From: Candidatus Scalindua sp. | GTDB lineage: Bacteria > Planctomycetota > Brocadiia > Brocadiales > Scalinduaceae | Direction of reading: 5' to 3' | NCBI GenBank assembly: GCA_031316235.1 | Contig: JALDRA010000001.1 | Coordinates: 3,420,001-3,452,000, forward strand | Length of the DNA: 32,000 bases | Part shown: positions 529 through 16,750 of the stretch, piece after piece | Numbering within the stretch: the first letter of the stretch is position 1 | How the letters are laid out: each line of letters opens with the position of its first letter | Position numbers and translations under genes: made by a program | The notes under the pieces: model-generated | Told to the model about the DNA's origin: nothing | Seen by the model: only the letters and a program-made list of their open reading frames with translations | The model's database searches: none

Positions 529-590
529 TACAACCTTTGTTGGTTTGATTTGTATTTTGTTTCGTGTTAGGAAGGAGAGGATTTTCTATT

Positions 591-1304
591 ATGAAAAGTT
601 TAATTCGTTATTTCTTGTTTGTTCTGTTTATTTGTTTTGTAGGTTCGGCAACTCTTGTCGCACAGGAAGCGCTTACTGAAGAGCAGGCAAAGGCTGCGCA
701 GCAGAAATTGGAAGAGGCACTGAAATCTCTTAAAAAAGAGATCAGGACAGAAGTTAAGGTTGAAAATGGCGGTGCTATCACCGGTATCGTCGCATGTAAG
801 AGAGTGAAGCATCCCGATAATGTTGTGGTGTATATTGAGAAAATAGGGGATAAGACCTATGATGCTCCTGTGGAGCATGGTGTTTTGGATCAGCTGAATT
901 TGACATTCGTTCCTCATGTTGTTGCGGTGCAGAAGGGAACCACAATAGATTTTCCCAATAGCGACTCGGTGCGTCACAACGTTTTTACCCCTCCTGATTG
1001 CTGCCGTCAGTTTAATTTGGGTACATATGACGTAGGCGTGGTCAAGAGTGTCACATTTGAAGAAACCTGTGATGTTCCGATTTTGTGCAACGTGCATGCC
1101 GAGATGCTGGGCTATGTTGTTGTACTTGATAATCCGTACTTTTCTGTAACGGAGAAAGATGGGGTTTTCAAGATTGAAAATATACCACCTGGTACCTATA
1201 AGCTTGCAGCCTGGCATGAAAAGCTCCAGACGGTTGTTAAAGATGTTACGGTAGAGGCAGGCAAGACAGTAAATGTTGATTTTCAATTAAAGAAGAGAAA
1301 ATAA
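591..1304 (+). CDS. Secreted cupredoxin-like (type-1 Cu ligand pattern) protein with C-terminal CarboxypepD_reg-like beta-sandwich
   Basis: The ORF track gives 564..1304, but ATG 591 is preceded by GAAGGAGAGG (571-580). The N-terminus is signal-like (FLFVLFICFVGSATLVAQE). His in SVRHNV plus CNVHAEM (C-x2-H-x2-M, amicyanin-type loop) give the copper ligand set. The C-terminus GVFKIENIPPGTYKLAAWHEKL...VNVDFQL is beta-sandwich-like. It is a paralog of 8646..9416. Confidence 0.75.
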   Translation: MKSLIRYFLFVLFICFVGSATLVAQEALTEEQAKAAQQKLEEALKSLKKEIRTEVKVENGGAITGIVACKRVKHPDNVVVYIEKIGDKTYDAPVEHGVLDQLNLTFVPHVVAVQKGTTIDFPNSDSVRHNVFTPPDCCRQFNLGTYDVGVVKSVTFEETCDVPILCNVHAEMLGYVVVLDNPYFSVTEKDGVFKIENIPPGTYKLAAWHEKLQTVVKDVTVEAGKTVNVDFQLKKRK

Positions 1305-1328
1305 ACCATTTATTTGGTGGGCGTTAAA

Positions 1329-1880
1329 ATGATACAGGAAATGGGAGATAAAGGGTTTGATGCAGGGTGTTCCGGGTCACATGGCGGGCATGTTGTGAAA
1401 AAGACAATAAGCCGAAGGAGATTTTTTTATCTCGTTGGTTGGGGTTTTATAGCCGCGTTTATGATGGGGGTTAGTGGGGCTATTATACGCTTTTTTTTCC
1501 CACGTGTTTTATTTGAGCCTCCGACAAGATACAAGTTAGGCTTTCCGTCAGAATATACCCTGGGTGTTAGTGAGAAATTTAAGAAACAATTCAGGGTGTG
1601 GGTAGTTCGTGAAGCAGACAGGATTTATGTTATTGAGGCGAAATGCACACACCTGGGCTGTACTCCAAACTGGTTGTCAACAGAGAAAAAGTTCAAGTGT
1701 CCTTGTCATGGAAGCGGCTTTACTCCAGATGGGATAAATATCGAAGGTCCTGCACCGAGACCATTAGAGAGGTTTCAGGTTTCAGTCGGTGAAAGCGGGC
1801 AGTTGGAGGTGGATGAGGGTATACGGTTCCGTGGTGAAAAGGGTGAATGGAATAAGCCGGGTGCTTTCGTCCCGGTATAG
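1329..1880 (+). CDS. Rieske [2Fe-2S] subunit of a Rieske/cytochrome b complex
   Basis: Rieske boxes CTHLGC and CPCHGS are present, with one N-terminal TM helix (FFYLVGWGFIAAFMMGVSGAII). ATG 1329 has GGTGGG 7 nt upstream. The ORF-track alternative start is TTG 1314. Confidence 0.9.
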   Translation: MIQEMGDKGFDAGCSGSHGGHVVKKTISRRRFFYLVGWGFIAAFMMGVSGAIIRFFFPRVLFEPPTRYKLGFPSEYTLGVSEKFKKQFRVWVVREADRIYVIEAKCTHLGCTPNWLSTEKKFKCPCHGSGFTPDGINIEGPAPRPLERFQVSVGESGQLEVDEGIRFRGEKGEWNKPGAFVPV

Positions 1881-2024
1881 TTGTAGAATGGTTGTTTTTT
1901 GTCTATATTGATGGTGCTTGACTGATTAAATCTTGTACGGGTGTGAACACCGCATACGTTGGAATGTGGATTTTGCCTGAAATGAAGCTCTGGTTGAAAG
2001 ATGTAAGTTATTGGGCTTCCTGGT

Positions 2025-2897
2025 TTGATGAGTTTAGAACTTGGTTGTGTGTTGCTGGGGGGTGTGAAATTGGGAAACAATACAGAAAAAGGAAAATTGT
2101 CGAAAATACTTGGATTGGTAAAAGAGAAGGGTGTTGTCAATGCAATCAAGGATACGGTCTTGAGTACTCAGATCTGGCGTTCCTTTTTTCGTCATGGACT
2201 TGAGGATACACCGAAAACCAGGATGGAGACAATTATCGGTAACTCTTTTCTCCATCTTCATCCAGCTAAAGTGAAGAGGCACGCACCATTATTTCGGTTC
2301 ACCTGGTGCATGGGGGGTATTACCTTTTTTTTATTTCTGGTTTTGACGATAACAGGTGTGTTCCTGATGTTTTATTATCACCCTAATGTAAGGGATGCTT
2401 ACTGGGATATGAAAGGTTTGGAGTACCATGTGCCTTTCGGTACATTGCTGCGGAACCTGCATCGATGGGGTGCTCATTTGATGGTTATAGCGGTTTGGTT
2501 TCATATGTTTAGGGTGTTTATGACGGGTTCATATAAGCCGCCGCGTGAATTTAACTGGGTCATAGGAGTGGTTTTATTGGTGATGACGTTGCTTTTGAGC
2601 TTTACCGGGTATCTGCTGCCGTGGGATCAGTTGGGTTTTTGGGCTGTGACTGTAGGCACAAACATGGCACGAGCGACTCCTCTTCTGGGACATGAAGGGC
2701 CTTTTGGTGATCTGTTAGGTATGACTGCGTATAACGATATCAGGTTTGCCCTGCTGGGTGGTTCACTTGTGGGGGGGAATGCATTGTTGAGGGCATATAT
2801 CTGGCACTGCATTGGTTTGCCGATGATCGTGAGTACTTTCTTGATTGTCCATTTCTGGAGAGTTCGTAAAGATGGTGGTATTTCAGGTAAATTGTAA
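2025..2897 (+). CDS. Cytochrome b6-type subunit (N-terminal four-helix part of cytochrome b)
   Basis: [18 protein letters not shown] has two His 14 apart and [18 protein letters not shown] has two His 15 apart, giving four heme-b ligands with b6-type spacing. WCMGGITFF resembles the heme ci Cys motif, and [10 protein letters not shown] is present. The start is uncertain: in-frame GTG 2064 and TTG 2070 follow a GGGGGG run (2057-2062). Confidence 0.9.
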
Positions 2898-2917
2898 GGT
2901 TTGAGGAGGGTTTGAGA

Positions 2918-3055
2918 GTGGAGAATATCTGGTTGATTATAAGCAAGCCTGATAATGTACCTATCGTGGGTTTGATTTTGCTTTTAGTTCTTTTTACGTG
3001 GATGTCTTTTAGCCAGGCGTCAAAAAACGATCGTCAGGCGAACGATGACAGTTAA
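2918..3055 (+). CDS. Candidate 45-aa single-TM micro-protein between the cyt b6 and flavoprotein genes
   Basis: Below the ORF-track size cutoff. GTG 2918 lies 8 nt after GAGGAGG (2903-2909). Translation is VENIWLIISKPDNVPIVGLILLLVLFTWMSFSQASKNDRQANDDS, with one hydrophobic helix and a polar tail. It fills an otherwise unexplained 204-nt gap. Confidence 0.4.
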   Translation: MENIWLIISKPDNVPIVGLILLLVLFTWMSFSQASKNDRQANDDS

Positions 3056-3101
3056 CTGTGAGTCTTTAATAAAGCATATGCTGTAAAATGGGGATTAATT
3101 C

Positions 3102-4796
3102 TTGAAATATAGGGTTGTACAAGCAGACGAAAGCTGGTTTAGTGAAAATATAAACTGTCAACATGCCTGCCCGGCGCATACTCCCGCTTCTAATTATATT
3201 GAAAGGTTGCAGGAGGGAGATTTTGAGGGTGCGTTGAAGTTGAATTATATGGCGAACCTATTTCCTCACATATTAGGCCGTGTATGTACACATCCTTGTG
3301 AGGCGGCTTGTCGAAGGGGAGCCATAGACAAACCAATTGCTATATGTACCTTGAAGAGGGTTGCCGCTGATTTTGCAGATCCGGATGTTCACCCGGAAAA
3401 GCCAAAAAAAATAAAAAACACAGGAAAAAAGGTTGCAGTAGTCGGTGCCGGACCATCCGGACTTGCTGCCGCTAATGATCTGGCCTTACTGGGGTATTCT
3501 GTAACGGTATACGAGGCGTTGCCGATGGCGGGTGGTATGCTGAGTGTAGGTATACCTCCTTATAGACTGCCATGGAATAGAATAGAAAGTGCGGTGAAGT
3601 GGGTTGAGGAATTGGGGATAAAGATAAAGCTCAATAGCCCGGTAAAAGATGAGGCTGAGCTTGATGCCTTGATCAGGAACTACGATGCTGTTTATCTGGC
3701 TGCCGGGGCTCACAAGTCACCTTCGCTTGAAATAGCCGGAGAAGATCTTGATGGCGTGGTGCACGGTATCAGGTTTATGAAAGATATCAACCTGGGTATT
3801 CTGAAAAAGGTACCTTCAAAAGTGGCTGTTGTTGGTGGTGGCTTTACGGCAATTGATTGTGCCCGTTCGTCCCTGAGACTGGGGGCGAAGGAGGTTTCAA
3901 TCATTTACAGGAGAACCTTGAAAGAGATGCCGGCTGGGGAGCTCGAAGTCTCTATGGCAGAGGAAGAGGCGATAAAGATTCTCTTTCTGACTACACCTGT
4001 CCGGGTGCTTGGGGATGCGGATGGGAAGGTGAAAGCCATAGAGTGTCTCATGAACAAGCTTGGGGAGCCTGATAACAGCGGCAGGAGGAGACCGGAACCA
4101 ATTCAGGGTAGTGAGTTTAAAATACCTGTAGATATGGTGGTTGCCGCTATCGGGCAATCGGCTGATACGGGTTTTGTATCCGAGGGTTTGGGAGTGAAGA
4201 TGACGAGATGGGGTACTATTAAAGTGGATCCCAGGACATTGATGTCTGACAGGGCAGGTCTTTTTGTTGGTGGTGACTACCTGACTGGTCCGAGGAATGT
4301 TATTGAGGTTATTGCTGACGGAAGGCAGGTGGCAAAAGCGATCGATGAATACCTTGGAGTGGCTCAGGAGAGAGAGGTTAACTATTTTTTCTCCGACGGT
4401 GAGCCTGTCAGGAACGTAGACAACTATGATGATCTGCCTCGTCAAAAACAGCAGGCACTGTCAATGGATACAAGATGGGATGTTGATAAAGAGGTGGAGC
4501 TGGGATTTACCAAACATGATGCTCAAAAAGAGGCAGATCGATGTTTGCTGTGTCATTATAATATTTTTATAGATGATCAAAAATGTATTTTGTGTGGTGG
4601 GTGCATCGATATCTGTCCGCACAACTGCATCATGATGATCTCGCGTGATAAAATTGAATCAGAGGGTGAAGTGGCTGGTAATTGGGATGCTGTTATGGCC
4701 ATTGACGAGGAGAAATGCATAAGGTGTGGACTCTGCGTAAGGAGATGCCCGGTGGATGCAATTAAGATGAAAAGATTCTCATATGTTGAGAGGTGA
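3102..4796 (+). CDS. NAD(P)H-dependent FAD oxidoreductase, glutamate synthase small-subunit (GltD)-like, with C-terminal 2x[4Fe-4S] ferredoxin domain
   Basis: The N-terminal Cys clusters CQHACP and RVCTHPCEAAC are Fer4_20-like. Two dinucleotide-binding folds are present (VAVVGAGPSGLAAA and VAVVGGGFTAIDCA). The C-terminus carries CILCGGCIDICP and CIRCGLCVRRCP. No TM helix is visible. The start is TTG at 3102. Confidence 0.85.
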   Translation: MKYRVVQADESWFSENINCQHACPAHTPASNYIERLQEGDFEGALKLNYMANLFPHILGRVCTHPCEAACRRGAIDKPIAICTLKRVAADFADPDVHPEKPKKIKNTGKKVAVVGAGPSGLAAANDLALLGYSVTVYEALPMAGGMLSVGIPPYRLPWNRIESAVKWVEELGIKIKLNSPVKDEAELDALIRNYDAVYLAAGAHKSPSLEIAGEDLDGVVHGIRFMKDINLGILKKVPSKVAVVGGGFTAIDCARSSLRLGAKEVSIIYRRTLKEMPAGELEVSMAEEEAIKILFLTTPVRVLGDADGKVKAIECLMNKLGEPDNSGRRRPEPIQGSEFKIPVDMVVAAIGQSADTGFVSEGLGVKMTRWGTIKVDPRTLMSDRAGLFVGGDYLTGPRNVIEVIADGRQVAKAIDEYLGVAQEREVNYFFSDGEPVRNVDNYDDLPRQKQQALSMDTRWDVDKEVELGFTKHDAQKEADRCLLCHYNIFIDDQKCILCGGCIDICPHNCIMMISRDKIESEGEVAGNWDAVMAIDEEKCIRCGLCVRRCPVDAIKMKRFSYVER

Positions 4797-4856
4797 TTCA
4801 CAGGTGCACGCGTAGTTGGAAAATGAATAGAGCTGATTGTATGAAGGGGACAAGAA

Positions 4857-5684
4857 ATGGCGGAAGATAAAGAGACAACAAAGGGAAGATACCGGGCGCT
4901 TGCGTTTGTCAAAGGGGAAACCCTGGCCAAGGAGAAGGATAGGGAAGTCGGGAAGGATGAAGTTCATACCTGGCCATATTTGGTGAGGGTAGAATTTCTT
5001 GCAGCCATCATTATGACCATTATATTGATGATCTGGGCTATTACGCTCGATGCGCCACTGGAGGATCCATCAGACCCTACATTGACTCCTAATCCGGCAA
5101 AGGCACCATGGTATTTTCTCGGGTTACAGGAAATGCTTGTGTATTTTGATCCGTGGATAGCTGGGGTTGTGTATCCATCTTTGATAGTTATCGGACTGAT
5201 GGTTATTCCATATGTGGATATTAATCCCAAGGGAAATGGTTATTACACTCTCAAGGAGAGAAAATTCGCAATACTTACTTTTTGTTTCGGTTTCCATGTG
5301 CTTTGGATATTACTGATCATTGTGGGTGTTTTTATGCGGGGGCCCGGTTGGATCTGGTTCTGGCCATGGGAAACCTGGGATGCTCACCGAGTGGTAGCTG
5401 AGACGAATTACGATCTTACTCACTTTATTGGAGTCGATTCAAAATCTTTCCTCGGTTCTGTTATCGGGGGTAGTGTTGTAGTACTCTACTATTTCATTAC
5501 GATGACTATACCGTTTCTATTCTTGAAATTTATTGGGAGCCCGACTCTTGAAAAAATGGGGATAATGCGGTATACAATTGTAGCGTTTTTGTTCTGGACA
5601 ATGATGACGTTGCCGATTAAGATGTTTTTGAAATTGGTTTTTCACATGAAATATATTTGGGTAACCCCGTGGTTTAATATATAG
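4857..5684 (+). CDS. Cytochrome b C-terminal part / subunit IV-like membrane protein (with extra C-terminal helices)
   Basis: PNPAKAPWYFLGLQE is a variant of the PEWY Qo-site motif. Several hydrophobic helices are visible. ATG 4857 is preceded by GAAGGGGA. Confidence 0.8.
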   Translation: MAEDKETTKGRYRALAFVKGETLAKEKDREVGKDEVHTWPYLVRVEFLAAIIMTIILMIWAITLDAPLEDPSDPTLTPNPAKAPWYFLGLQEMLVYFDPWIAGVVYPSLIVIGLMVIPYVDINPKGNGYYTLKERKFAILTFCFGFHVLWILLIIVGVFMRGPGWIWFWPWETWDAHRVVAETNYDLTHFIGVDSKSFLGSVIGGSVVVLYYFITMTIPFLFLKFIGSPTLEKMGIMRYTIVAFLFWTMMTLPIKMFLKLVFHMKYIWVTPWFNI

Positions 5685-5714
5685 TAAAATGCGATTAAGG
5701 AAAGCTGGCATATA

Positions 5715-8561
5715 ATGAATAGATTAGAAGACAAATCATATGTAGGAAGGTACGTACTGTTAAGTTTGATACTTCTGTTTACGATGGTTGGTGCCATTTG
5801 GAATGAATTAATTGTAAAAAGGCCATGGAAATACTTTCAATCACGTTTTCATGAACTGGAGTATAATAATGCCAAGGCTCTGTATGACAAAGCTGTTGAG
5901 GCATTTAATGACCCAGAGATTCACAAAGAGTATCTTACCCTTGCTGCAAATTTGAAGGATGCTAACGAAAATTTTAACAGGCCGATTATTCAGGATGAGT
6001 ATCAGAAGGTGTTGAAAAAGCTGGAGAAACTCGATAAGGATGAGTTGGAACCATTAAAATTCGAGGCTATACTTACCCGTAATAAGCTTCAGGAAGAGGC
6101 GTATGTATATGGCAGGAGTAAAAAAGAAGAAACATTGAAAGCCATCGAGGGCCTGGAACAGAAAAATAAAGACTTAGCTGAAAAAATAGGCAAACTTGAA
6201 GATAAAAGAGCAGTATTACAAAGTAAGGTTGATGCATTTAAGAGCAAGATTATCACGTATGAAAATGAGCTGAAGATCTTTACGGCTGATGTTGATAAAT
6301 ATCGGACTTTGTTAAATAATATTAATGCAAAACGACCGGGGTTACAGCGCTATCAGGTGCATCTGGAGGCGATTAATGAAGCTGACAGGTGTATGTCCTG
6401 TCACCCGGGAATAGATCGAAGTGAGAGTGTTTCAGAAGAGCAGCCATATGCGAGTCATCCGAGGAGAGATATTTATCTCGGGAATCACCCGCCTGAAAAG
6501 TTTGGTTGTGTCCTGTGTCATGAGGGACAGGCTAGAGCGACTACCAGTCCTGAGAAAGCTCATGGAGAAGTTGAATTCTGGTTACGGCCGATGCTCAAGG
6601 GGGATATGATCCAATCCTCATGCATTTCCTGTCACTCAAATGTTGTCGGGCTGGAAGGTGCGGAAAAGATTTCCGAAGGGTGGAAGCTTTTTAATGAGGC
6701 TGGCTGTTTTGGATGTCATCAGGTGGAGGGGTTCGGCGGGGACAAATTTATGATGATTGGTCCAAATCTGACTGAATTGGGTAGTAAAGTGAATGCTGTT
6801 TGGCTATATCATTGGTTGATGGCACCTAAAGATTACAGGCCCTCTGCCAGGATGCCGGATTTTATGTTGGAAGAGTCTGAGGCAAAAGCTATATCCTCTT
6901 ATCTCTGGCAGAACTCAGAAGGTTTTGATGCGGGTGCTGCTGAGGAGTTCGATGATGAGACTATTGATGATGGAGCATACATTTTTGAAAGTATCGGTTG
7001 CCTGGCATGTCATAGCGAAATAGAAGAAGATGGTCAGGTGCATGGGCCTAATCTGGCAAGGATCGGAGAAAAGGTCAACTTTGAATATCTGGTCAGCTGG
7101 CTCTTGAATCCGAAATTACACCAGCCTGACACTACGATGCCGAATTTCCGTCTTGATGATGAGAGCGCGCGGTTACTCGCAGCATTTCTGACAACTCTTA
7201 CAAGCGATGGTTTCGAGACTTCTGATGAAGAAACAGAGTGGATAGAAGATGAAGAGCTGGCAGCACAGGGGAAAAACCTGATCGGCAGGTATGGTTGTTT
7301 TGGCTGTCATGAAATAAGAGGGATGGAAGGAAGAGGAAAAATTGGAGTCGAATTGTCGGATATAGGTTCTAAGCACGTACATCTCTTTGATTTCGGATTG
7401 AAGGAACATGAGATGATTCATGAATTGGGGATTAAGCACCCGACGGAAAACGTCGCTGCTGCCAGGAGGGCATGGATTGAGGCGAAGTTAACCGACCCGC
7501 GACAATTTGATGAAGGTCGATATAAGAAGCCGTCTGACAGGCTGATAATGCCGAACTTTGGATTGACAGAAGAGGAAGTTAAGCTGATTACAGCGGTTCT
7601 TCTGGGTATGAGAGAGGGAGAAATGCCAGAGGAGTACCGTTTTCAAACTACTGATGATCAGAAAGCGATTCTTGAGGGGAAGAGGGTTGTCAGAAAATAT
7701 AACTGTACTGGATGCCATCAATTCAGCATAGATACACTGTATTTGAATAATGGAACTGTATTGAAGGGTATGGTCAAACTGGAAGAGGAAGATAATCTCT
7801 TTTTTCAACTATGGGAAGATAATGCGGCTTTTGGCAGAGAGGCTGGTGAGACTGCCCAGATTCCGACATCACAAATTAAAAACCGGGTTTATGCTGAAGG
7901 GGGAGATATTGGCTCTTTCATAATTGATTATCACGTCGAGGTTGAAGGGCGTGTGCCTGAGGAGGCAAATGTGTTCACGCCTCCCGTCCTCTATAAAGAG
8001 GGAGAGAAAGTACAGAGTAACTGGGTGTTCGATTTTCTTGAAGAACCGTTTCCTTTACGTCCTTGGCTTGAAGTCCGTATGCCGACGTTTAAATTACCTT
8101 CAGAGGAGGCAACATCGTTATCACGCTACTTTGCGATTCTGGAAGGTGAGGAGTATCCCTATGAATTTATTAAAGAGACGAAAAAAAGTTACATAGCCCA
8201 AAAGGAAGAAGAGTGCCCGGGTTATCTGGATGATGCGCGTAGGTTGTTTGACTCAAAGGATGTAAATTGCGCTTCCTGTCATGTAAGAGGTTCAATAACA
8301 CCTGATGGTGAGCCATCGAGCTGGGCTCCAGATTTGTCTCTGGCAAAATATAGGCTGAAGCCTGACTGGATTAAGAGGTGGTTACTGGATCCGCAGCTTA
8401 TCCAGCCAGGAACAAAAATGCCGAAGCTGTTCAGGGAAGGGGTATTTCAGGATATTTTTCCTGGTGAACCTGGTGAACAGGCTGAGGCACTAAAGGACCT
8501 TCTGATGAACTTTCCGGATGAAATGGTTGGCGAGGGTGAGGATGCAGACTCGGAAGAGTAA
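5715..8561 (+). CDS. Membrane-anchored octaheme c-type cytochrome with long N-terminal helical stalk
   Basis: Eight CxxCH motifs: CMSCH, CVLCH, CISCH, CFGCH, CLACH, CFGCH, CTGCH, CASCH. There is one N-terminal TM helix (YVLLSLILLFTMVGAIW). Residues ~43-207 are charged and heptad-like with no Cys. Confidence 0.85.
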   Translation: MNRLEDKSYVGRYVLLSLILLFTMVGAIWNELIVKRPWKYFQSRFHELEYNNAKALYDKAVEAFNDPEIHKEYLTLAANLKDANENFNRPIIQDEYQKVLKKLEKLDKDELEPLKFEAILTRNKLQEEAYVYGRSKKEETLKAIEGLEQKNKDLAEKIGKLEDKRAVLQSKVDAFKSKIITYENELKIFTADVDKYRTLLNNINAKRPGLQRYQVHLEAINEADRCMSCHPGIDRSESVSEEQPYASHPRRDIYLGNHPPEKFGCVLCHEGQARATTSPEKAHGEVEFWLRPMLKGDMIQSSCISCHSNVVGLEGAEKISEGWKLFNEAGCFGCHQVEGFGGDKFMMIGPNLTELGSKVNAVWLYHWLMAPKDYRPSARMPDFMLEESEAKAISSYLWQNSEGFDAGAAEEFDDETIDDGAYIFESIGCLACHSEIEEDGQVHGPNLARIGEKVNFEYLVSWLLNPKLHQPDTTMPNFRLDDESARLLAAFLTTLTSDGFETSDEETEWIEDEELAAQGKNLIGRYGCFGCHEIRGMEGRGKIGVELSDIGSKHVHLFDFGLKEHEMIHELGIKHPTENVAAARRAWIEAKLTDPRQFDEGRYKKPSDRLIMPNFGLTEEEVKLITAVLLGMREGEMPEEYRFQTTDDQKAILEGKRVVRKYNCTGCHQFSIDTLYLNNGTVLKGMVKLEEEDNLFFQLWEDNAAFGREAGETAQIPTSQIKNRVYAEGGDIGSFIIDYHVEVEGRVPEEANVFTPPVLYKEGEKVQSNWVFDFLEEPFPLRPWLEVRMPTFKLPSEEATSLSRYFAILEGEEYPYEFIKETKKSYIAQKEEECPGYLDDARRLFDSKDVNCASCHVRGSITPDGEPSSWAPDLSLAKYRLKPDWIKRWLLDPQLIQPGTKMPKLFREGVFQDIFPGEPGEQAEALKDLLMNFPDEMVGEGEDADSEE

Positions 8562-8645
8562 TTGTATCTGGAACATTGTTATCACCTGTTTTTTTTTGAA
8601 AATTGGTAGGCTGGTTGTTAATTATAATTATAAAGGAGTCATATT

Positions 8646-9416
8646 ATGAAAAAAATTATTGAAAGTTGTGTGAAAAGTGTCGTAATAGCCTTTATTATGG
8701 TTTCGTTTACGTTACTTGTCAGTAAGAGTAGTGTTAATGCTGAGTATGTGGGTGGGGATGTATCCAATGGCGGATCAATTTCTGGTACGATTAAGCTGAA
8801 GGGCGATACACCGGAGGTAAAGATGTTAAAGGTTGATAAGGATCAGGCAACCTGCGGTCACGATGATATAGAATCAGAAGCACTGATTTTATCAGCGGAC
8901 AATGGTATTAAGGATGCTGTTATTTCGATTACAGACATCACCAAGGGGAAAAAGTTTCCTGCTGATAAGCTAGAGATAGATCAGAAAGAATGTATATTCA
9001 TACCTCATGTGACATTAGCGCCAAAGGGGCAGACGGTTGAGCTGTTAAATAGTGACGATGTTATGCATAATCTGCATTCGTACTCGATGAAAAATACTGC
9101 TTTTAATGAAGGGGTTACAGGTGGTGGTAAACTTCCCAAAAATTTTGAATATGCTGAAACTATCAAAATTACCTGTGACGTGCATACCTGGATGACTTCA
9201 TGGCTGATTGTTCAGGATCACCCATATTATGTATTGAGTGACGAAAATGGTAAATATACGATTGACAATGTTCCTGCAGGTGACTACACTCTTCAGGTCT
9301 GGCAGGAATCTCTTGGAAAGACTACACAAAAGGTATCAGTAAAAGCAGGGGAAAACACCACAGTAGATTTTGAATTAGAGAAGAAATCTCAGAAAAAATC
9401 CAGAAAACGAAGGTAA
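8646..9416 (+). CDS. Secreted cupredoxin-like protein with C-terminal CarboxypepD_reg-like domain (paralog of 591..1304)
   Basis: AAAGGAG SD lies 7 nt upstream of the ATG and the N-terminus is signal-like. VMHNL plus CDVHTWM (C-x2-H-x2-M) give the ligand set. The C-terminus reads GKYTIDNVPAGDYTLQVWQESL...TTVDFEL. Confidence 0.75.
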   Translation: MKKIIESCVKSVVIAFIMVSFTLLVSKSSVNAEYVGGDVSNGGSISGTIKLKGDTPEVKMLKVDKDQATCGHDDIESEALILSADNGIKDAVISITDITKGKKFPADKLEIDQKECIFIPHVTLAPKGQTVELLNSDDVMHNLHSYSMKNTAFNEGVTGGGKLPKNFEYAETIKITCDVHTWMTSWLIVQDHPYYVLSDENGKYTIDNVPAGDYTLQVWQESLGKTTQKVSVKAGENTTVDFELEKKSQKKSRKRR

Positions 9417-9548
9417 TTGATACAGATGATTTGAAAATTTTTATTTATCTGTAATTTTTCTGTCTCAAAATCTTTAGACTCGATTAAAATAATTTTTTTT
9501 ACATATTTTGTAAAATTACTAATTAGGTAAAAACTAACATTGAATACC

Positions 9549-11492
9549 ATGAAACATTTTATCAAAGGGAAAAGCTGTAAGGTACTCTTTTCGTTCCTGT
9601 TTATTCTGATACTTCAGCTTGTTACGTCCCAGTATGTCGAGGCGCAGGAAAGTGGTGAGCTTGTACAATACCGGAATTTCTTCGGTATAGATGCACGTTT
9701 GATGGTGTGGATAGTTTCTGAATTGCATCTGATGTTTGCAGCGTTTGTACTTGGAGTTCCAATGTTTGCAGTAACGGTGGAGATTATCGGTGTAAAGTCC
9801 GGGGACATCAGATTTGACAACCTGGCACGAGAATTTACGAAACTTTTGTCAGCGGCCTTTGCTACAACTGCTGCATTGGGTGGCTTACTCGCATTTTGCC
9901 TGTATGGGATGTATCCCGGATTCATGCGCTATATGACCGATGTGTTCCATCCAATAATGTTCATATATGCTTTGCTTTTCTTTGCAGAGGCTTTCTGTTT
10001 GTACGGATATTATTATTCGTGGGACATACTCAAAGAGAAGGGTAAGTGGTTTCATATTTTTCTTGGTATCATGTTAAATGTCTTCGGTACGACATTGATG
10101 TTTCTCGCAAATTCCTGGGCAACGTTTATGATGTCGCCTGATGGCATAGATCTGGAAACCGGAGCTGTTACCAGTTTACATGCTGCCTTTGATAATTTTC
10201 TCTGGATGCCGGTTAATATACACCGACTGATTGCAAATGTTGCTTTTGGTGGTTTTGTTGTTGGTGCTTATGCGGCGGTGAAATTCATGGGATCTAAAAG
10301 TGATGAAGATAAAGCTCACTATGATTGGATGGGTTATATCGGTAATTTTATTGGTCTGGCAGCCTTGATACCTCTTCCTTTTGCCGGGTATTACCTTGGG
10401 CGTGAGATTTACAGTGCGAGCCCGGTTATGGGAAATATAATGATGGGTGGAGCATTTTCCTGGACCTTCATCATACAGGCTATTCTCATCGGTATGCTCT
10501 TCATCGGTGGAAACTATTATCTGTGGAATGGAATGGACAGAATTGAAGGTGCAGATCGTTATCGGAAATTTATAATATTTATTAATGTTATAATTTTCTT
10601 CTGCTTTGCGGTATGGTTAACTCCTCATAATCTTCCGCTGAGTGGTGAAGAGAGAGCCTTGATTGGAGAGCAGTATCACCCCTTCTCCAAATTCTTCGGT
10701 GTTATGGCTGCAAAGAATGCGGTAGTGAATCTTCTGATACTTTCAACATTTTTCAGCTTTCTTATCTATCGCAGGGCAAATAAAGGAGAGATTGTCACAT
10801 TTTCAAAGCATGGTAATTCCGCTCGCATAGCTCTGATTATTACCGCAGGGCTGACTATTCTATATCTGGCATGGTATGCAATGGGTTTACGTGCTGTAGA
10901 GTTGGATGCAAATATCAAACAGTACATTACACCTCTTCTTGCGTGTATAGCAATACAAATTACCGCTATAGTTATTGCGGTTCTCATGACTTTTGCTAAC
11001 AGAGGAAAATCTGCTCAAATTTTTCTTTTCATAGTGACTACTCTCATAGCGGTGGTTTATTTAGCCTATTATGGGTTTGTGGTCATGGAGAAGGCGAACA
11101 TGGTTTTACGGTTTTTGTCTGTGACCCAGGTGTCTGTTGTTATCAGTTGTTTAATTGTCAACGCAGTTTTAGATGTATTTATCTTCAAGAATGCTAAGGA
11201 AGTGGGAAAAATTCGCTGGGGTAAAATTCCGCTCCGATCACAATATGCATTACTTTTGCTCTGTGTGGCGATAGTAACGCTGATGGGTCTCATGGGATTC
11301 ATACGTTCTGGACTGCGGATGAACTGGCATATTTATGGCTATATGCAGGATACTTCGCCTGGAGCATTTACCCCCAGTATTTCATACATGGGTTTAACAA
11401 CTACTTTGATTGTAGTTCTTTTCCTGGCTCTTGTTTCCTTTGTATTCTGGTTAGCAGGTCTTGGAGATAAGAAGAAAGGGGGCCATGCTTAA
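9549..11492 (+). CDS. Orphan cytochrome bd subunit I (CydA)-like polytopic membrane protein, no adjacent CydB
   Basis: The ORF track gives 9540..11492 (TTG); the first ATG is at 9549. CydA-like landmarks are ELHLMFAAFVLGVPMF (N-terminal His), LANSWATFMMSPDG and NIHRLIANVAFGGFVVGAY (second His). About 14-15 hydrophobic helices are visible by eye. No long hydrophilic Q-loop is seen. Confidence 0.7.
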   Translation: MKHFIKGKSCKVLFSFLFILILQLVTSQYVEAQESGELVQYRNFFGIDARLMVWIVSELHLMFAAFVLGVPMFAVTVEIIGVKSGDIRFDNLAREFTKLLSAAFATTAALGGLLAFCLYGMYPGFMRYMTDVFHPIMFIYALLFFAEAFCLYGYYYSWDILKEKGKWFHIFLGIMLNVFGTTLMFLANSWATFMMSPDGIDLETGAVTSLHAAFDNFLWMPVNIHRLIANVAFGGFVVGAYAAVKFMGSKSDEDKAHYDWMGYIGNFIGLAALIPLPFAGYYLGREIYSASPVMGNIMMGGAFSWTFIIQAILIGMLFIGGNYYLWNGMDRIEGADRYRKFIIFINVIIFFCFAVWLTPHNLPLSGEERALIGEQYHPFSKFFGVMAAKNAVVNLLILSTFFSFLIYRRANKGEIVTFSKHGNSARIALIITAGLTILYLAWYAMGLRAVELDANIKQYITPLLACIAIQITAIVIAVLMTFANRGKSAQIFLFIVTTLIAVVYLAYYGFVVMEKANMVLRFLSVTQVSVVISCLIVNAVLDVFIFKNAKEVGKIRWGKIPLRSQYALLLLCVAIVTLMGLMGFIRSGLRMNWHIYGYMQDTSPGAFTPSISYMGLTTTLIVVLFLALVSFVFWLAGLGDKKKGGHA

Positions 11493-11625
11493 TCAAATTG
11501 AGAAATGATACAAAAATTAGGGAATATTCATGGCGTTTCTGTGGATTAGTTTGTTTTGTATGAATTCGTAAGGGAGCTTTCATAACATTTTAAATTGTGT
11601 TATTAGGAGTTAAAAAGCAAAGAAA

Positions 11626-12573
11626 ATGGCAAGTTTTGGTAAATCTATAATATTTACGTTACTGATTTTAGGGTTTTTTGTATATGTATGTTACTATGTA
11701 ACAGGATTATCAGGTGGCTCTGGCGGGGGAGAGGCAAAGGGCATCAATCCGGAGGCTGGCGAGCAGATCTACTGGGGTGACGGACAGTGCAGTACCTGCC
11801 ACAGCATCGGGTCCTCCGGAAGCGCTACGAGAGGACCAAATCAGGAAGGTCTTGCAGCAAGGGCTGAGGAGAGGGCTAAAGAGAGAGGTATGGCTACCGG
11901 ACTTGAGTATCTCATAGAATCTATCGTAGCACCTGGTGAATACGTTGTCGAGGGTTTTGATAATATCATGCCGAAGGTTTACGAAGCACCGATTCTCTTG
12001 GAGCGCGATCAGATAATGGCAGTACTTTCATACCTGCAAACGTTAGGTGGAGAGCCTGACATTGCCGCGATCAATAAACTCAAAGATAAAATTCCTCAGG
12101 CATCTAAGAGCAAGGTTATTCCATGGATTCCTCCTATAGAGGTGGAACCCAGCGTAGGAGAGCAAATTTTCTTCGATGGTACACGTGAAGTTACTTGTTC
12201 AAAATGTCATATGGTTAATGGTAAAGGAGCCAAGGTTGGTCCGGACTTGACCGGGATTGGTGCAGTGCAGACTCCTCAATATATTATTGAGTCTATCCTG
12301 AAACCCAGTCAGGTAATCGTCAATGGTTTTGAAACCATGTATCTTATTACAACTGATGGCATGGCTTATAACGGTATAGTGCAGAGTCAGTCTGAAGAAG
12401 AGACCGTGTTGTTGGTAGATGAAGAGGGTGAGATTGCCGAATATGTATTTTATCCAGATGAGATAGAGCAGATGCAGAAACAGGAAATTTCGATAATGCC
12501 TGGTAATTTTGGAGAGATGTTGACAACTTATGAATTTTATGGGATTGTTTCATATCTTTTGAGTTTAAAATAG
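11626..12573 (+). CDS. Membrane-anchored diheme c-type cytochrome
   Basis: CSTCH and CSKCH motifs, with an N-terminal TM helix (SIIFTLLILGFFVYVCYYVTGL). Confidence 0.8.
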   Translation: MASFGKSIIFTLLILGFFVYVCYYVTGLSGGSGGGEAKGINPEAGEQIYWGDGQCSTCHSIGSSGSATRGPNQEGLAARAEERAKERGMATGLEYLIESIVAPGEYVVEGFDNIMPKVYEAPILLERDQIMAVLSYLQTLGGEPDIAAINKLKDKIPQASKSKVIPWIPPIEVEPSVGEQIFFDGTREVTCSKCHMVNGKGAKVGPDLTGIGAVQTPQYIIESILKPSQVIVNGFETMYLITTDGMAYNGIVQSQSEEETVLLVDEEGEIAEYVFYPDEIEQMQKQEISIMPGNFGEMLTTYEFYGIVSYLLSLK

Positions 12574-12618
12574 TAACTGTTTTGAAATTAGTGCATTAAT
12601 ATAGAAGGAACTGAACGG

Positions 12619-13389
12619 ATGCAGAAAAAGAAACATTCATATTCGATGATATGGGCCATAATCTCGATACTTATTGTCTTTTGTATAATTAAATTTGTAT
12701 CACCATATGCGTTCATGATGCTGTTGGGTAAAGATCATACAATGCCAACTCCCAGTACCTTAATGTTATGGTACATGATTCTTGGTGTTCTGGGAGCGCT
12801 TGTCTATGTTTCTACCAGTGATTTAAAATGGGCAAACTTTTTAAGTTTCATGCTTCCGGGTGAGGATGACCGGACCAAGAAGATGCTCCAAAAGTTGATC
12901 GTGGTTGCATTTCCTTTGTTGCTGGGCTGGTTTGTCTATTCAGGAACTTCTCCTGGAACAGCATCTCCTGTTGAGCTGAGGATACAGCATCCTACTTTGC
13001 TGCAAAAGTATGAAAAAATGGAGAATCCATTCGCACACGTATCCGAAGAATTAAAAGAGCGCTATATTGAAGAAGGAAAGCACCTTTATCAACAGAACTG
13101 CCGGCCCTGCCATGGTTCAAAGGCCGATGGAAACGGTCCTTTCGCCAATTCGTTTCGATTGCGACCTATTAATTTTACTGATCCCGGTACAATAGCAACA
13201 GTTGTTGAGAGTTTCGCCTTCTGGCGTATTATGGAGGGTGGCCCCGGGTTGCCAGATGAGTCTACACCATGGGACTCTGCAATGCCTGCATGGGAAGGAA
13301 CACTGACAGATGATCAGGTTTGGAAGATTATTATGGGAGAATATGCAACTGCCGGGGTGAAACCAAGGCAGAGGGAGGAAATGGAATAG
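12619..13389 (+). CDS. Monoheme c-type cytochrome with three N-terminal TM helices
   Basis: A single CRPCH followed by GSKADGNG (class I / cbb3-type cytochrome c domain). Three hydrophobic segments precede it. GAAGGA SD lies upstream. Confidence 0.8.
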   Translation: MQKKKHSYSMIWAIISILIVFCIIKFVSPYAFMMLLGKDHTMPTPSTLMLWYMILGVLGALVYVSTSDLKWANFLSFMLPGEDDRTKKMLQKLIVVAFPLLLGWFVYSGTSPGTASPVELRIQHPTLLQKYEKMENPFAHVSEELKERYIEEGKHLYQQNCRPCHGSKADGNGPFANSFRLRPINFTDPGTIATVVESFAFWRIMEGGPGLPDESTPWDSAMPAWEGTLTDDQVWKIIMGEYATAGVKPRQREEME

Positions 13390-13470
13390 GGATCTTTGTT
13401 TTTTTTTAATGAAGAATTGTAATCACTTTTTATTGATGGCATATTAATACTTACTATTTAGAAAACTACG

Positions 13471-15219
13471 ATGAGCAAAAAAAAAGAGCAGTCAAATTAT
13501 TATTTTGAGTTTACGAGATATCTTTTTTTGATACTTGTTGCTTTCGTGCTTTTTTCACGATTTGGGTATACACAGACCTCTCAGCTCTTTAGGACGTATA
13601 AGAGTGAGATCACCGGTAAAGTACCTGAAACCCAGGATGCGGTTGCGGCAGGAAAGAAAATTTACGAAAAGAAGTGCTACTACTGCCATGGGATCAAGGG
13701 TGACGGGAAAGGTTCTGATGCCCTTAGGCTTAATCCAAGGCCGAGAAATTTCATCAGGAACGAGTATAAAATACGTTCAACACCTCTTCATGAACTTCCG
13801 ACTGATGAAGATCTTTTCAGGATTATAACAAGCGGAATTGAGGGAACAGATATGCCCTTTTGGAGTTCACTGTCCAGTGAAGAGAGGTGGCAGGTCGTTT
13901 ATTACATAAAAACTTTCAATACTGCTTTTGAAAAAAAATCTCAGAACGCATCAACTTCTGGTGGCAACGAGATTCCGGTGAGCCCGGAGTCAGTTAAAAT
14001 TGGTAGTGAGCTCTTTAAAGATGCAAAATGCGTAAACTGTCACGGTGAGGGTGGTAAGGCTGATGGTAAAATAACTACGACATTAGAGGGCATCTGGGAT
14101 CGTCCCTATCGTGCAAGGAATCTGACGAAAAGCTGGCTTTTTAAAGGTGGTAATGCTGCTTCAGATATTCATAGAACCCTGACGAATGGATTAAATGAAA
14201 CACCGATGGGTTCCTATGCAGAATATCTGTCAGATGAGGAGCGATGGCATCTGGCTCATTATGTCAAATCAATTTCTAAAACAATGGATACCGATGTGGT
14301 GCTTACCTCGAAAATAGTAGAAAGTTATCTTCCTGCTGGACCCGATGATCCGGTCTGGGATACAATCACCTCGGTTGAATTGCCATTGGCCGGGCAGATC
14401 ATCGCTAAACCGAGACAGTGGATGCCGTCCGTTGATTCAATCAAGGTCAAGTCTTTTTTTACTGATGAGTATATTGTCTTTCTGCTTGAGTGGGACGATA
14501 CGACAAACGAGCAGAATGAGACGTTTAGTGATTCGGTAGCCTTACAATTTCCCACATCAATCCCTGATGGATCTGAGAAACCCTATTTTGCGATGGGTAG
14601 TTCCGGGAAGGGTGTTACGATATGGCAATGGAGGGCGTATGATGAATCTCTTCAAATTGCCGAAAATGATTTAGAAGAAACGGATAAGGCGGACACAGCA
14701 ACCGATGGTGGCAGCAGCCTGGATGATAAAGAGGTTGAAGAAGATTCCGGTGATGTGGGTGTAAACACCCCTGAAAATGAGCAGGCAGAGATTGTTGAAG
14801 AAGAAGAGATGAAGCCTCTTTTTACCGAGTTTGCAACTTTAAGGGAAATGAATGCAAAGGGCTTTACGAATGTGAGCGTTCAGCCTTCCAGCAGCCAGCT
14901 TACCCGGGGACTTGGGGTATGGAGAAATGGTAAATGGAAGGTAATGGTAGCCAGTCCGATAGCCACAAATGACAAGAAGCTCGATATTCAATTTGAAGAG
15001 GGAAAGCTCATACCGTATGCCTTGGCGGTATGGGACGGATCTAAGCAGGAGGTTGGTGGGCTTAAATCTATTTCATCTTGGTATTATTTGAATTTGGAGA
15101 AAGTTACACCAAAAAGTGTCTATTTTTATGTTGTTATTGCAATAATAATTGGAACCAGTATTCAATTTTGGGTTATTGGAAGAGTAAGACGATTTCCCCC
15201 GAAGGTTAATGAAGAATAA
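13471..15219 (+). CDS. Diheme cytochrome c fused to an EB_dh (ethylbenzene dehydrogenase gamma / NxrC-NarC-like) heme b domain, C-terminal TM anchor
   Basis: CYYCHGIKGDGKG and CVNCHGEGGKADG form a CcoP-like diheme unit. The EB_dh-like strings are VALQFPTS..PYFAMGSSGKGVTIWQWRA and ALAVWDGSKQEVGGLKSISSWYYL. An acidic insert spans 14641-14817. The C-terminal TM is VYFYVVIAIIIGTSIQFWVIG. Confidence 0.7.
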   Translation: MSKKKEQSNYYFEFTRYLFLILVAFVLFSRFGYTQTSQLFRTYKSEITGKVPETQDAVAAGKKIYEKKCYYCHGIKGDGKGSDALRLNPRPRNFIRNEYKIRSTPLHELPTDEDLFRIITSGIEGTDMPFWSSLSSEERWQVVYYIKTFNTAFEKKSQNASTSGGNEIPVSPESVKIGSELFKDAKCVNCHGEGGKADGKITTTLEGIWDRPYRARNLTKSWLFKGGNAASDIHRTLTNGLNETPMGSYAEYLSDEERWHLAHYVKSISKTMDTDVVLTSKIVESYLPAGPDDPVWDTITSVELPLAGQIIAKPRQWMPSVDSIKVKSFFTDEYIVFLLEWDDTTNEQNETFSDSVALQFPTSIPDGSEKPYFAMGSSGKGVTIWQWRAYDESLQIAENDLEETDKADTATDGGSSLDDKEVEEDSGDVGVNTPENEQAEIVEEEEMKPLFTEFATLREMNAKGFTNVSVQPSSSQLTRGLGVWRNGKWKVMVASPIATNDKKLDIQFEEGKLIPYALAVWDGSKQEVGGLKSISSWYYLNLEKVTPKSVYFYVVIAIIIGTSIQFWVIGRVRRFPPKVNEE

Positions 15220-16729
15220 TACAATGAAAAAAAATAATTTGATAATCAGAAATCTTGAACTACTTGCTGCAACTGGGCTTTTTATTTTTTCAATTATTGT
15301 ATTGACCCCTTTGTCAATTCGTGCAGAAGCCAACAAGGATCAGAAGTTTTATCTAGAGATAGAGGAGTTATACAACGGTAAAAAAGAGTATAAGCAGCTG
15401 CCGATACAGCTGGAGGATCCATATGATCGCTCGAAAAATGGTCCTACGCTCAAGAATGTTATCCACAAGGCAAGCAAAGAGTGGTTGAAGAAGTGGATAG
15501 ATAATCCAACCTCCATGATTCCAAATGCTCGTATGCCGAGACTTATGTTAAGTGAAAGTGAGATTGAAGCAGTTCTGGCGTATTTAACAAGCATTGCCGA
15601 TAAGGATATTCCCCGACAGAAGTGGGATGAATACCTTATGAAAAGTGAAGATGATATGACCGACGATGAGTATGATGAAATGAATGATTTGAGCGATAAG
15701 GGTAAAGGTGTATGGGGAAGGGCACGTTGTAATATATGCCATCCAGTTAAAGGTAAAGGAGGTTCTGTTGATGTCGGGCCAGATCTCGGCAGGTTAGCGG
15801 AGAAATTGAACCGTGACTGGTTATATATGTGGATTAAAGAACCAAAAAGCCATTTCCGTGATACTCAAATGCCACGATATCGATTCAGTGATGATGAGAT
15901 ACGTCAATTGGTAGAATTTCTCATGCAGTCATATGATTTTAAACCTGAAGAGAGCGATGATGAGGAAAATGAATCAGATTCTCAGGAAAATGATTCTGGA
16001 TCAGGAGAACCTGAAGATGATACTGAAAAGGAAGGTTCAATAAGGGTCTCATCGCTTATCCCTGAAGGCTCTTTAATTGAAAAGGGTAAGAGGATTATTG
16101 AACTGAACAGATGCACTATCTGCCATGAAATTGAAGGGATAGCAGATCTTCTCCCTGTTAAAGAACCCAGTGTAGAACCTGAAAATACCTTTGCACATTT
16201 ATTGAATGATGTTCGTTGTATGACGTGTCATAAAATACAGGGTAATGGTGGTTCTTATGCTCCTGAACTGACACATGAAGGGAGCAAACTTAAACAGAAA
16301 TGGATTAAGGGTTTCTTACAGAAGCCTGATATTATCCGTCCTCTATTACAGCAGATGCCTAAATTTAACATTACTGAGGATGAGGCTGAGCTTGCAGTTG
16401 AGTTTATTGAGGAATACTTTGTAAACGACGATATTCCTGTTGCAAAGTTTGCCGACAGAGAGCCAACTGACGAGGAAATCAGTAAAGGTAAGGAGCTTTA
16501 TGATGTAAAGGGGTGTAGAAGTTGCCATGCGATACAAGAGGGAGGAATTGTTGGTCCAACATTAAAAAGAGTTGGTGACAGGTTAGAAAATGGTTTTATA
16601 TATCATCATCTGAAAAATCCTCACCTGGAAGTTCCTGATGGAGTTGAACCAAATTTTCAATTTTCGGATGAAGAGGCGGTTGCTATCACGAATTATCTGA
16701 TGTCATGTAAGGATAAGGAAAAAAATTAA
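15209..16729 (+). CDS. Membrane-anchored tetraheme c-type cytochrome with an N-terminal heme-less cytochrome-c-like domain
   Basis: Motifs CNICH, CTICH, CMTCH and CRSCH. It overlaps the previous stop by 11 nt; the alternative ATG is 15224. The N-terminal hydrophobic anchor is LELLAATGLFIFSIIVLTPL. An acidic linker reads DDEENESDSQENDSGSGEPEDD. Confidence 0.8.
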   Translation: MKNNTMKKNNLIIRNLELLAATGLFIFSIIVLTPLSIRAEANKDQKFYLEIEELYNGKKEYKQLPIQLEDPYDRSKNGPTLKNVIHKASKEWLKKWIDNPTSMIPNARMPRLMLSESEIEAVLAYLTSIADKDIPRQKWDEYLMKSEDDMTDDEYDEMNDLSDKGKGVWGRARCNICHPVKGKGGSVDVGPDLGRLAEKLNRDWLYMWIKEPKSHFRDTQMPRYRFSDDEIRQLVEFLMQSYDFKPEESDDEENESDSQENDSGSGEPEDDTEKEGSIRVSSLIPEGSLIEKGKRIIELNRCTICHEIEGIADLLPVKEPSVEPENTFAHLLNDVRCMTCHKIQGNGGSYAPELTHEGSKLKQKWIKGFLQKPDIIRPLLQQMPKFNITEDEAELAVEFIEEYFVNDDIPVAKFADREPTDEEISKGKELYDVKGCRSCHAIQEGGIVGPTLKRVGDRLENGFIYHHLKNPHLEVPDGVEPNFQFSDEEAVAITNYLMSCKDKEKN

Positions 16730-16750
16730 ATTTTTCGAAAAAAAATTATT

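Follow-up and report, generated by a model that had tools for sequence, protein, structure and literature searches.

Kuenenia stuttgartiensis contains three Rieske/cytochrome b (R/b) complexes (PMC12954380), and one of them, R/b-2, is the closest described relative of the gene cluster reported here. The cluster is located in a 32,000-nucleotide stretch of DNA from Candidatus Scalindua sp. (the whole stretch is called the window), and carries a gene for a soluble NAD(P)-binding flavoprotein (positions 3102–4796) between the genes for the two halves of cytochrome b. In R/b-2, Kustd1480 is the Rieske protein, Kustd1481 is cytochrome b, Kustd1483 is the NAD(P) reductase, and Kustd1485 is a large multihaem cytochrome c (PMC12954380). 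Kustd1482 is described as 'a gene of unknown function' (PMC9325076), and Kustd1484 should be the subunit IV-like (SUIV) protein, by its position. The system has been described since 2011–2013, and electron bifurcation is the accepted hypothesis for it. Bifurcation from quinol to NAD(P)+ was proposed by Kartal et al. 2013.

The potentials of the Kuenenia Rieske proteins are high, with +335 mV for Kustd1480 (Hauser et al. 2025, PMC12954380). In AlphaFold3 models of the Kuenenia complexes, the flavoprotein is docked on the negative side with high core confidence, and the cofactor chain is continuous, with steps of at most 15 Å (PMC12954380). SUIV has five transmembrane (TM) helices in both Kuenenia complexes (PMC12954380). 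For R/b-3 (Kuste4569–4574), co-migration of all subunits is reported by Hauser et al. 2025 (PMC12954380), citing de Almeida 2016. According to Dibrova et al. 2017 (PMC5600118), expression is high for the Kuenenia complexes that combine cytochrome b with the large oxidoreductase subunit. Moreover, the short cytochromes b of 'subfamily G' co-occur with such oxidoreductases 'in many other cases', also outside anammox bacteria (PMC5600118). An earlier note on this DNA had described bifurcation as proposed but not shown biochemically, and this agrees with the literature, which holds the 2013 proposal, the potentials and AlphaFold3 models of 2025, and no assay. The structure prediction that the note had suggested as a check was published in 2025 for the Kuenenia orthologs (PMC12954380).

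The window derives from an anammox bacterium of the family Scalinduaceae. Between 564 and about 18700, all genes are on the + strand, in an unbroken run, and the gaps between the genes across 564–8561 are 9–144 nucleotides. This region encodes the following proteins, one of them by a very short open reading frame (micro-ORF):

564–1304, + strand: cupredoxin-like protein (PF13620, 1.7e-10; PF00127 just under the cut-off)
1314–1880, + strand: Rieske [2Fe-2S] protein (PF00355)
2025–2897 as listed, with a likely start at TTG 2070, + strand: cytochrome b6, four-helix short type (PF00033, 1e-41)
2912–3055, + strand: micro-ORF of 47 amino acids, with one hydrophobic helix (from hydrophobicity and conservation)
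3102–4796, + strand: NfnB/GltD-type soluble flavoprotein of 564 amino acids (Pfam domains, Cys and Rossmann motifs)
4857–5684, + strand: SUIV membrane protein (PF00032, 2.7e-5; five hydrophobic segments)
5715–8561, + strand: membrane-anchored octahaem cytochrome c of 948 amino acids (cytochrome c domains; exactly 8 CxxCH; N-terminal TM helix)

The order given in the earlier note (Rieske, cytochrome b6, micro-ORF, flavoprotein, subunit IV-like protein, octahaem cytochrome c) is confirmed by the ORF calls, the Pfam matches and the CxxCH count. It is also the order of R/b-2, as read from the Kuenenia locus numbers and roles (PMC12954380, PMC9325076).

The soluble domain of the window Rieske protein is identical to that of Protein Data Bank (PDB) entry 9rk3 at 88 of 116 positions (76%), with an E value of 8e-65, compared to only 1e-21 for 9rk4. 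The segment CPCHGSGF, with a Ser and no Tyr, is found in both the window protein and 9rk3, while 9rk4 has CPCHGSKY. Kustd1480 has the Ser and lacks the Tyr that is present in Kuste4569 (PMC12954380). As this signature matches the published description, 9rk3 can be taken as Kustd1480, and the window therefore encodes the Kustd1480 ortholog. Judged by gene order and the Rieske sequence, the entire cluster is an ortholog of R/b-2 (Kustd1480–1485), a new copy of an already known system.

The two clusters share the closely similar Rieske soluble domain with its Ser/Phe second-sphere signature, a five-helix SUIV, and a flavoprotein with one 4-Cys cluster, one 3-Cys cluster and 2×[4Fe-4S]. On the other hand, the host of the window belongs to another family, Scalinduaceae, and no database protein exceeds 91% identity. 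The window operon is preceded by a cupredoxin-like gene, and is followed by a second cupredoxin-like gene, a gene similar to that of cytochrome bd subunit I, and several cytochrome c genes. R/b-3 also has a Rieske protein, a b6-type cytochrome b, a five-helix SUIV, an NfnB/GltD-like NAD(P) oxidoreductase and a multihaem cytochrome c. However, by its locus tags the flavoprotein gene (Kuste4570) lies between those of the Rieske protein (Kuste4569) and cytochrome b (Kuste4571). R/b-3 has a hexa- or octahaem cytochrome c together with an HAO-like octahaem protein, the latter being absent in the window, and the structure of Kuste4569 matches the window Rieske protein only at E = 1e-21.

The more distant comparison is with cytochrome b6f. 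As in b6f, the window cluster has cytochrome b in two parts (b6 and subunit IV), the haem cN Cys motif, a small single-helix subunit and an accompanying gene for a plastocyanin-like cupredoxin; the Rieske protein of the window is most similar to PetC. However, it has an octahaem cytochrome c in place of cytochrome f, its SUIV has five helices as against three in b6f, and its b6 carries an N-terminal, His-bearing extension. Compared to the chloroplast b6f complex with bound ferredoxin:NADP+ reductase, the NAD(P) enzyme of the window is an Fe-S flavoprotein of another family, encoded within the operon. Membership in the canonical cytochrome b6f group was rejected, as none of the cluster genes encodes PetA (cytochrome f); the TM-anchored octahaem cytochrome c takes that place.

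The flavoprotein consists of a Fer4_20 domain (residues 15–92; PF14691, 66.7 bits versus a gathering cut-off of 25.8), a Pyr_redox_2 domain (residues 109–402; PF07992, 113 versus 26.1), and a 2×Fer4 dicluster domain (residues 494–556). Its dinucleotide-binding motifs are GAGPSG at residue 115 and GGGFTA at residue 245, and the CxxCxxCxxxCP motif is found twice in the C-terminus, at residues 495 and 539. Kyte-Doolittle hydropathy in 19-residue windows peaks at 1.58, under the threshold of 1.6, which predicts a protein with no TM helix. The domain matches, motifs and hydropathy bear out the two Rossmann folds, the C-terminal 2×[4Fe-4S] ferredoxin domain and the lack of a TM helix that the earlier note had proposed. 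The N-terminal Fe-S Cys clusters of that proposal are also found, as the Fer4_20 domain and the Cys residues are present, but a minor correction is needed for the first Cys pair, which follows the flavin adenine dinucleotide (FAD) and NAD domains. This pair, R480-C481-x-x-C484, is permuted. It is located C-terminal to the FAD/NAD domains, as in 9bov_A, while the pair in GltD is N-terminal. The Fer4_20 match begins at profile position 28.

The Cys residues of the N-domain (19, 23, 62, 66, 70, 481 and 484) are invariant in 20 diverse homologs, and so are the eight in the ferredoxin domain. Seven residues are the right number for a 4-Cys cluster and a 3-Cys cluster, in line with the model of Kustd1483. 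In the models of Kustd1483 and Kuste4570, the cluster nearest to FAD is held by only three Cys residues, plus a buried Lys (PMC12954380). The invariant K85 is a candidate for the counterpart of this Lys. The segment Y269-R270-R271, after the second Rossmann strand, is invariant in the same homologs, and suggests a preference for NADP(H), by analogy with the NADPH-using relatives.

More than 7000 homologs of the flavoprotein are found at E ≤ 1e-20 (the best with 91% identity, the next with 87%), and its start codon is consistent with those of the orthologs. ORF 3102–4796 is on these grounds recognized as a genuine gene and not a chance ORF. The protein is about 70% identical to Candidatus Scalindua proteins labelled 'NAD(P) oxidoreductase' or 'oxidoreductase, FAD-containing subunit'. 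Relatives from Dehalococcoidia and Nitrospinota are named in the protein-cluster look-ups, with no Kuenenia protein among them. One 47% identical homolog, P0122 (730 amino acids, from a Dehalococcoidia metagenome-assembled genome (MAG)), carries a response-regulator receiver domain at its N-terminus, which is surprising to find fused to a redox enzyme.

A sequence search of the flavoprotein against PDB chains gives the following ranking:

9bov_A: GltD-like module, subunit A of Bfu-type NfnABC, E = 2e-115
9n5u_A: NfnABC of Thermococcus sibiricus, E = 6e-111
8oh5_C: StnABC, E = 5e-105
5jca_L: NfnI large subunit, E = 2e-88
4ylf_B: NfnB, E = 9e-88
5vj7_A: Xfn, E = 3.5e-75
2vdc_G: GltD, E = 1.5e-62
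1h7x_A: dihydropyrimidine dehydrogenase (DPD), E = 2e-39

NfnABC and StnABC thus come first, the NfnI large subunit (which we take to be the protein formerly named SudA) and NfnB are level behind them, and GltD and then DPD follow. The order is the same in Foldseek with an AlphaFold2 model. Domain content and both rankings agree with the description of the flavoprotein as GltD-like and soluble. In the comparison with GltD, NfnB and SudA that the earlier note had proposed, similarity places it nearer to the Nfn-type modules than to GltD.

Several assignments to known enzymes were rejected. For GltD proper, the scores are far from the cut-offs (291.4 versus 482.95 for TIGR01318, 203.5 versus 447.7 for TIGR01317), and a GltB partner gene is lacking. 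The cut-off of the PRK12771 subfamily is missed as well. NfnAB and DPD were rejected on scores under the cut-offs and absent partner genes, and Bfu-type NfnABC on absent partner genes, the neighbors being membrane cytochromes. Among the Pfam-scanned ORFs between 564 and 26448, no NfnA-, NuoE/NuoF- or GltB-like partner is found.

The flavoprotein shares with the Nfn NADPH modules the FAD and NAD(P) Rossmann domains, the two N-domain Fe-S clusters and the invariant YRR, and with the NfnABC subunit the RCxxC motif that follows the FAD/NAD domains and leads to further Fe-S domains. However, its partner is a membrane b6 complex, rather than NfnA, a NuoE/F-like protein or ferredoxin. Moreover, the FAD itself bifurcates in Nfn, while the window complex would bifurcate at the quinol site and its FAD would only collect electrons. 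The Fer4_20 and Pyr_redox_2 pair is shared with GltD and the N-terminal half of DPD, to which the window protein adds the C-terminal dicluster ferredoxin domain and the permuted first Cys pair. GltD and DPD pass single electrons between NADPH/FAD and a partner by way of two Fe-S clusters, with no bifurcation. Run in reverse, these enzymes offer the best analogy for the way in which the flavoprotein would work.

A scan of genome contigs finds 14 Scalindua/Scalinduaceae loci and two distant matches. The flavoprotein is 69–87% identical in 13 of the loci, and 63% identical in L011. The order Rieske, b6, micro-ORF, flavoprotein and SUIV is kept in all 14 loci, while the octahaem gene and other neighbors vary. 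A cupredoxin gene is present upstream of the Rieske gene in all 12 loci that reach far enough upstream. The nearest flavoprotein cluster outside Scalindua has 51% identity, from MAGs labelled Thermodesulfobacteriota or 'Proteobacteria'. The Thermodesulfobacteriota-type order is flavoprotein, b6, SUIV, Rieske and multihaem cytochrome c. In five metagenome contigs, from soil/peat and other sources, the order is flavoprotein, Rieske, b6, SUIV and octahaem-like cytochrome c; these contigs come from a scan of metagenomes with general GltD-wide patterns, in which 5 of the 80 loci among the matches listed have R/b neighbors, as examples and not as a frequency. The flavoprotein gene therefore adjoins Rieske/b6 genes in at least two other orders outside anammox bacteria, and Kuenenia R/b-3 would add another. 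This linkage persists through the shuffling of gene order across phyla, which is strong evidence of functional partnership.

The earlier note had argued that the position of the gene implies a subunit. This is supported by the order in the 14 loci, by the adjacency in other orders, by the reported co-migration of the sister complex (PMC12954380, citing de Almeida 2016), and by the expression data (PMC5600118). We are confident that the flavoprotein is a bound subunit of this R/b complex. A homolog of the same architecture (36% identity), in locus L036, is located beside genes for a 2-oxoacid:ferredoxin oxidoreductase, with no R/b genes nearby. The module is a general NAD(P)H-to-Fe-S adaptor recruited by different partners. 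In the Thermodesulfobacteriota-type loci (L017, 1–7500, and L018, 4757–7473), genes for an NrfD-type membrane protein and a Fer4_11 iron-sulfur protein precede the flavoprotein and R/b genes, in L017 together with those for a molybdopterin oxidoreductase and multihaem cytochromes. These neighbors suggest a link with another quinone-interacting module.

Among the membrane subunits, the Rieske protein has one TM helix. For b6, a G-rich stretch is located 9–14 nucleotides upstream of TTG 2070, and a 'GG.KL' segment is conserved in the orthologs upstream of residue 16. This segment probably corresponds to the ribosome-binding site and the start codon, such that b6 probably starts at TTG 2070 and not at TTG 2025. 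From TTG 2070, b6 has 275 residues, and includes His62 and Arg266-Lys267. These are the residue numbers of the predicted ligand and propionate partners of an extra haem in Kustd1481, a match in numbering and not a direct alignment. The extra haem b, positioned between two b6 monomers, is an AlphaFold3 prediction for Kustd1481 (PMC12954380).

The His motif F-L-H-L/I/V (FLHLHP in the window) is found in every b6 of the flavoprotein-bearing loci, 20 besides the window (12 Scalinduaceae orthologs, the L011 paralog, L017, L018, L024, L025, L028, L035 and L054). The segment is missing in the canonical solved b6 chains, and b6 chains in the PDB align only from residue 73 of the 275-residue form. The haem cN Cys motif is TWCMGG in the window. 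This Cys is kept in Scalinduaceae, L017 and L018, and is replaced by Phe or Gly in L024, L025, L028, L035 and L054, where the RKDGG motif and the N-terminal His are retained. Across phyla, the His is always kept, and the cN Cys is lost in some loci. This pattern is a minor new observation in support, and is unmentioned in the papers examined. In L035 and L054, the b6 ORF runs on into SUIV-like sequence, and the two proteins appear fused. L011 contains a second, tandem R/b operon (6850–10066) after the flavoprotein-containing one, with Rieske, b6, SUIV and octahaem genes and no flavoprotein gene between b6 and SUIV.

The SUIV protein is 73–95% identical in the 14 loci, and five TM helices are predicted (Kyte-Doolittle), compared to the usual three. 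The micro-ORF product (45–47 amino acids) has 57–91% identity in these loci, and its synonymous codon differences equal or exceed the non-synonymous ones (15 versus 3, 17 versus 3 and 15 versus 2 for the closest loci). A search with it finds only 7 close Scalindua matches, and in several Scalindua MAGs it is annotated as 'hypothetical protein'. Its conservation and codon pattern mark it as a genuine gene, and it is a probable small subunit, the positional equivalent of kustd1482.

The octahaem cytochrome c has a charged segment of about 180 residues ahead of the first haem motif. Its identity is 76–81% in the three closest loci; in other Scalindua loci it is 31–37%, or the protein is absent. 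In L003, the interval from SUIV to the second cupredoxin gene contains no octahaem homolog. The only counterpart in L004, L007 and L008 is a multihaem protein of 31–35% identity, and its gene starts about 900 base pairs after SUIV in L004 and L008 and about 250 base pairs after it in L007. The high-potential branch seems exchangeable among Scalindua.

In the best explanation of these observations, 3102–4796 encodes the cytoplasmic NAD(P)-binding FAD/Fe-S subunit of a b6f-type complex, the R/b-2 ortholog, that would bifurcate the electrons of menaquinol to NAD(P)+. We regard this explanation, taken as a whole, as somewhat more probable than its negation. Menaquinol would be oxidized at the positive-side quinol site, where its two electrons would be split. 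The high-potential electron would pass through the Rieske cluster to the octahaem cytochrome c and a high-potential acceptor. The low-potential electron would pass through haems bP and bN to haem cN, and/or to an additional haem b that would sit between the two b6 monomers, with the conserved N-terminal His as its ligand. The next carrier would be the 2×[4Fe-4S] ferredoxin-like domain of the flavoprotein, followed by the two N-domain clusters and then by FAD, which would gather two electrons and reduce NAD(P)+. The flavoprotein would thus act as GltD or NfnB in reverse, and would replace quinone reduction on the negative side.

Given menaquinol at −70 mV, a Rieske potential above +300 mV puts the expected potential of the bP haem near −475 mV (PMC12954380). 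The direction toward NAD(P)+ is favored by these energetics, with a high Rieske and a low bP potential, and by the Rieske gene being always co-encoded. For the physiological direction taken by itself, we consider the case for NAD(P)+ reduction by bifurcation to be evenly poised.

Several points weigh against this explanation. The extra haem b is known from AlphaFold3 prediction alone, and the equivalence of its residues in the window and in Kuenenia comes from numbering rather than from aligned b6 and flavoprotein sequences. The b6 of the flavoprotein-less tandem operon in L011 keeps the N-terminal His motif, and also the haem cN Cys. The His can therefore occur in an operon that has no flavoprotein gene, and a strict link between the two was downgraded for this reason. 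The octahaem partner is variable among the Scalindua loci. The AlphaFold2 model of the flavoprotein monomer is poor (mean predicted local distance difference test (pLDDT) score of 59.9, and below 50 for the Fe-S domains), and was used for fold ranking only. There is no published quinol:NAD(P)+ activity assay for any member of these complexes. Finally, the haem cN of the published models is ligated by Glu, lies close to a His, and stays accessible (PMC12954380). With such a haem, quinone reduction on the negative side is still plausible.

The last point leads to the strongest alternative, in which the complex is the same and the electrons flow in reverse, from NAD(P)H to FAD, the Fe-S chain and the negative-side haems, and then to menaquinone at Qn or on to the c-type haems. 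This would resemble the role of ferredoxin:NADP+ reductase on the chloroplast b6f complex in cyclic electron flow. GltD, NfnB and DPD accept hydride from NAD(P)H, and hand single electrons down two [4Fe-4S] clusters. The nearest characterized relatives of the flavoprotein are therefore NAD(P)H oxidizers, an analogy that would speak for the reverse direction. The retained haem cN Cys of the window b6 points the same way, as does the presence of the same module in non-anammox bacteria of unrelated metabolism, and the accessible haem cN and nearby His of the published models would suit proton-coupled quinone reduction (PMC12954380). However, reverse flow would waste about 250 mV, although the cell has coupled NADH dehydrogenases (Hauser et al., PMC12954380), and the very low bP potential makes sense only if the low-potential branch does hard reductive work (PMC12954380). 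Moreover, an input module would need no Rieske protein, yet one is always co-encoded. We consider reverse flow rather unlikely. It is very improbable that the flavoprotein is co-transcribed or co-regulated with the R/b genes and works as a soluble Nfn/GltD-like enzyme with ferredoxin or another soluble partner, as might be argued from its lack of a TM helix and from the L036 homolog (which indicates that the module can serve other partners), because its gene is located between two membrane-subunit genes with short gaps in 14 loci, its adjacency to b6, SUIV and Rieske genes survives reordering across phyla, co-migration is reported for the sister Kuenenia complex (PMC12954380), the flavoprotein is docked in the AlphaFold3 models with high core confidence (PMC12954380), and no NfnA-like or GltB-like partner is present among the ORFs scanned (564–26448).

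If bifurcation from menaquinol to NAD(P)+ is correct, a Q-cycle-type bifurcation would make NAD(P)H straight from quinol instead of pumping protons. This would explain the low-potential reductant for CO2 fixation in anammox bacteria, and possibly in others. A broader proposal, which we put forward only tentatively, is that the flavoprotein-bearing Rieske/b6 complexes are a widespread family of quinol-to-NAD(P)H bifurcating enzymes, including those of the Thermodesulfobacteriota type and from soil and peat. In this family, a haem b between the two monomers, bound by the universally conserved b6 His, would connect the dimer to one flavoprotein, even without the cN Cys, and the uphill reduction of NAD(P)+ would be independent of the proton-motive force.

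The window contributes a divergent Scalinduaceae ortholog, and leaves the question no further open than the work on Kuenenia did. It adds comparative evidence of selection on the predicted special features, namely the His proposed to bind the extra haem b, the five helices of SUIV, the cluster with three Cys ligands and the small subunit. What is new here is the gene order in 14 Scalinduaceae loci, the gene orders outside anammox bacteria and the conservation of the His, and not a new kind of system. The non-anammox carriers of related operons may be more tractable for biochemistry.

The cupredoxin-like protein at 564–1304 has a signal/TM helix and a CarboxypepD_reg-like C-terminal domain, and its gene ends 9 nucleotides before the Rieske gene. 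A paralog is encoded at 8646–9416, such that the pair flanks the R/b genes; both are secreted or anchored, and each has a cupredoxin-like and a CarboxypepD_reg-like domain. The ligand pattern H...C-x2-H-x2-M is conserved in the 12 orthologs of the 564–1304 protein, and the paralog also keeps it in all of its orthologs. This pattern looks like a type-1 copper site, and the two proteins could be plastocyanin-like acceptors of the b6f-type complex.

A scan for promoters and terminators gives counts no higher than in shuffled controls, and a search of Rfam gives zero matches. Further downstream, the region 9540–17380 (+ strand) encodes a 650-residue, many-helix protein that matches only the N-terminal part of cytochrome bd subunit I, together with a dihaem cytochrome c, further cytochromes c and a FixO-like cytochrome c. 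In one of the proteins of this region (13471–15219), an EB_dh (NxrC-like haem b) domain is joined to a pair of cytochrome c domains. The NXR gene clusters of Nitrospina, Nitrospira and Kuenenia have a similar set of cupredoxin, bd-like and cytochrome c accessories (PMC3578206). In the three closest Scalinduaceae loci, the octahaem gene is likewise followed by the cupredoxin, the bd-like gene and the dihaem cytochrome c. The final gene of the same-strand run (17457–18704) encodes tandem universal stress protein domains and a PCP_red domain (C-terminal domain of the protochlorophyllide reductase 57 kD subunit).

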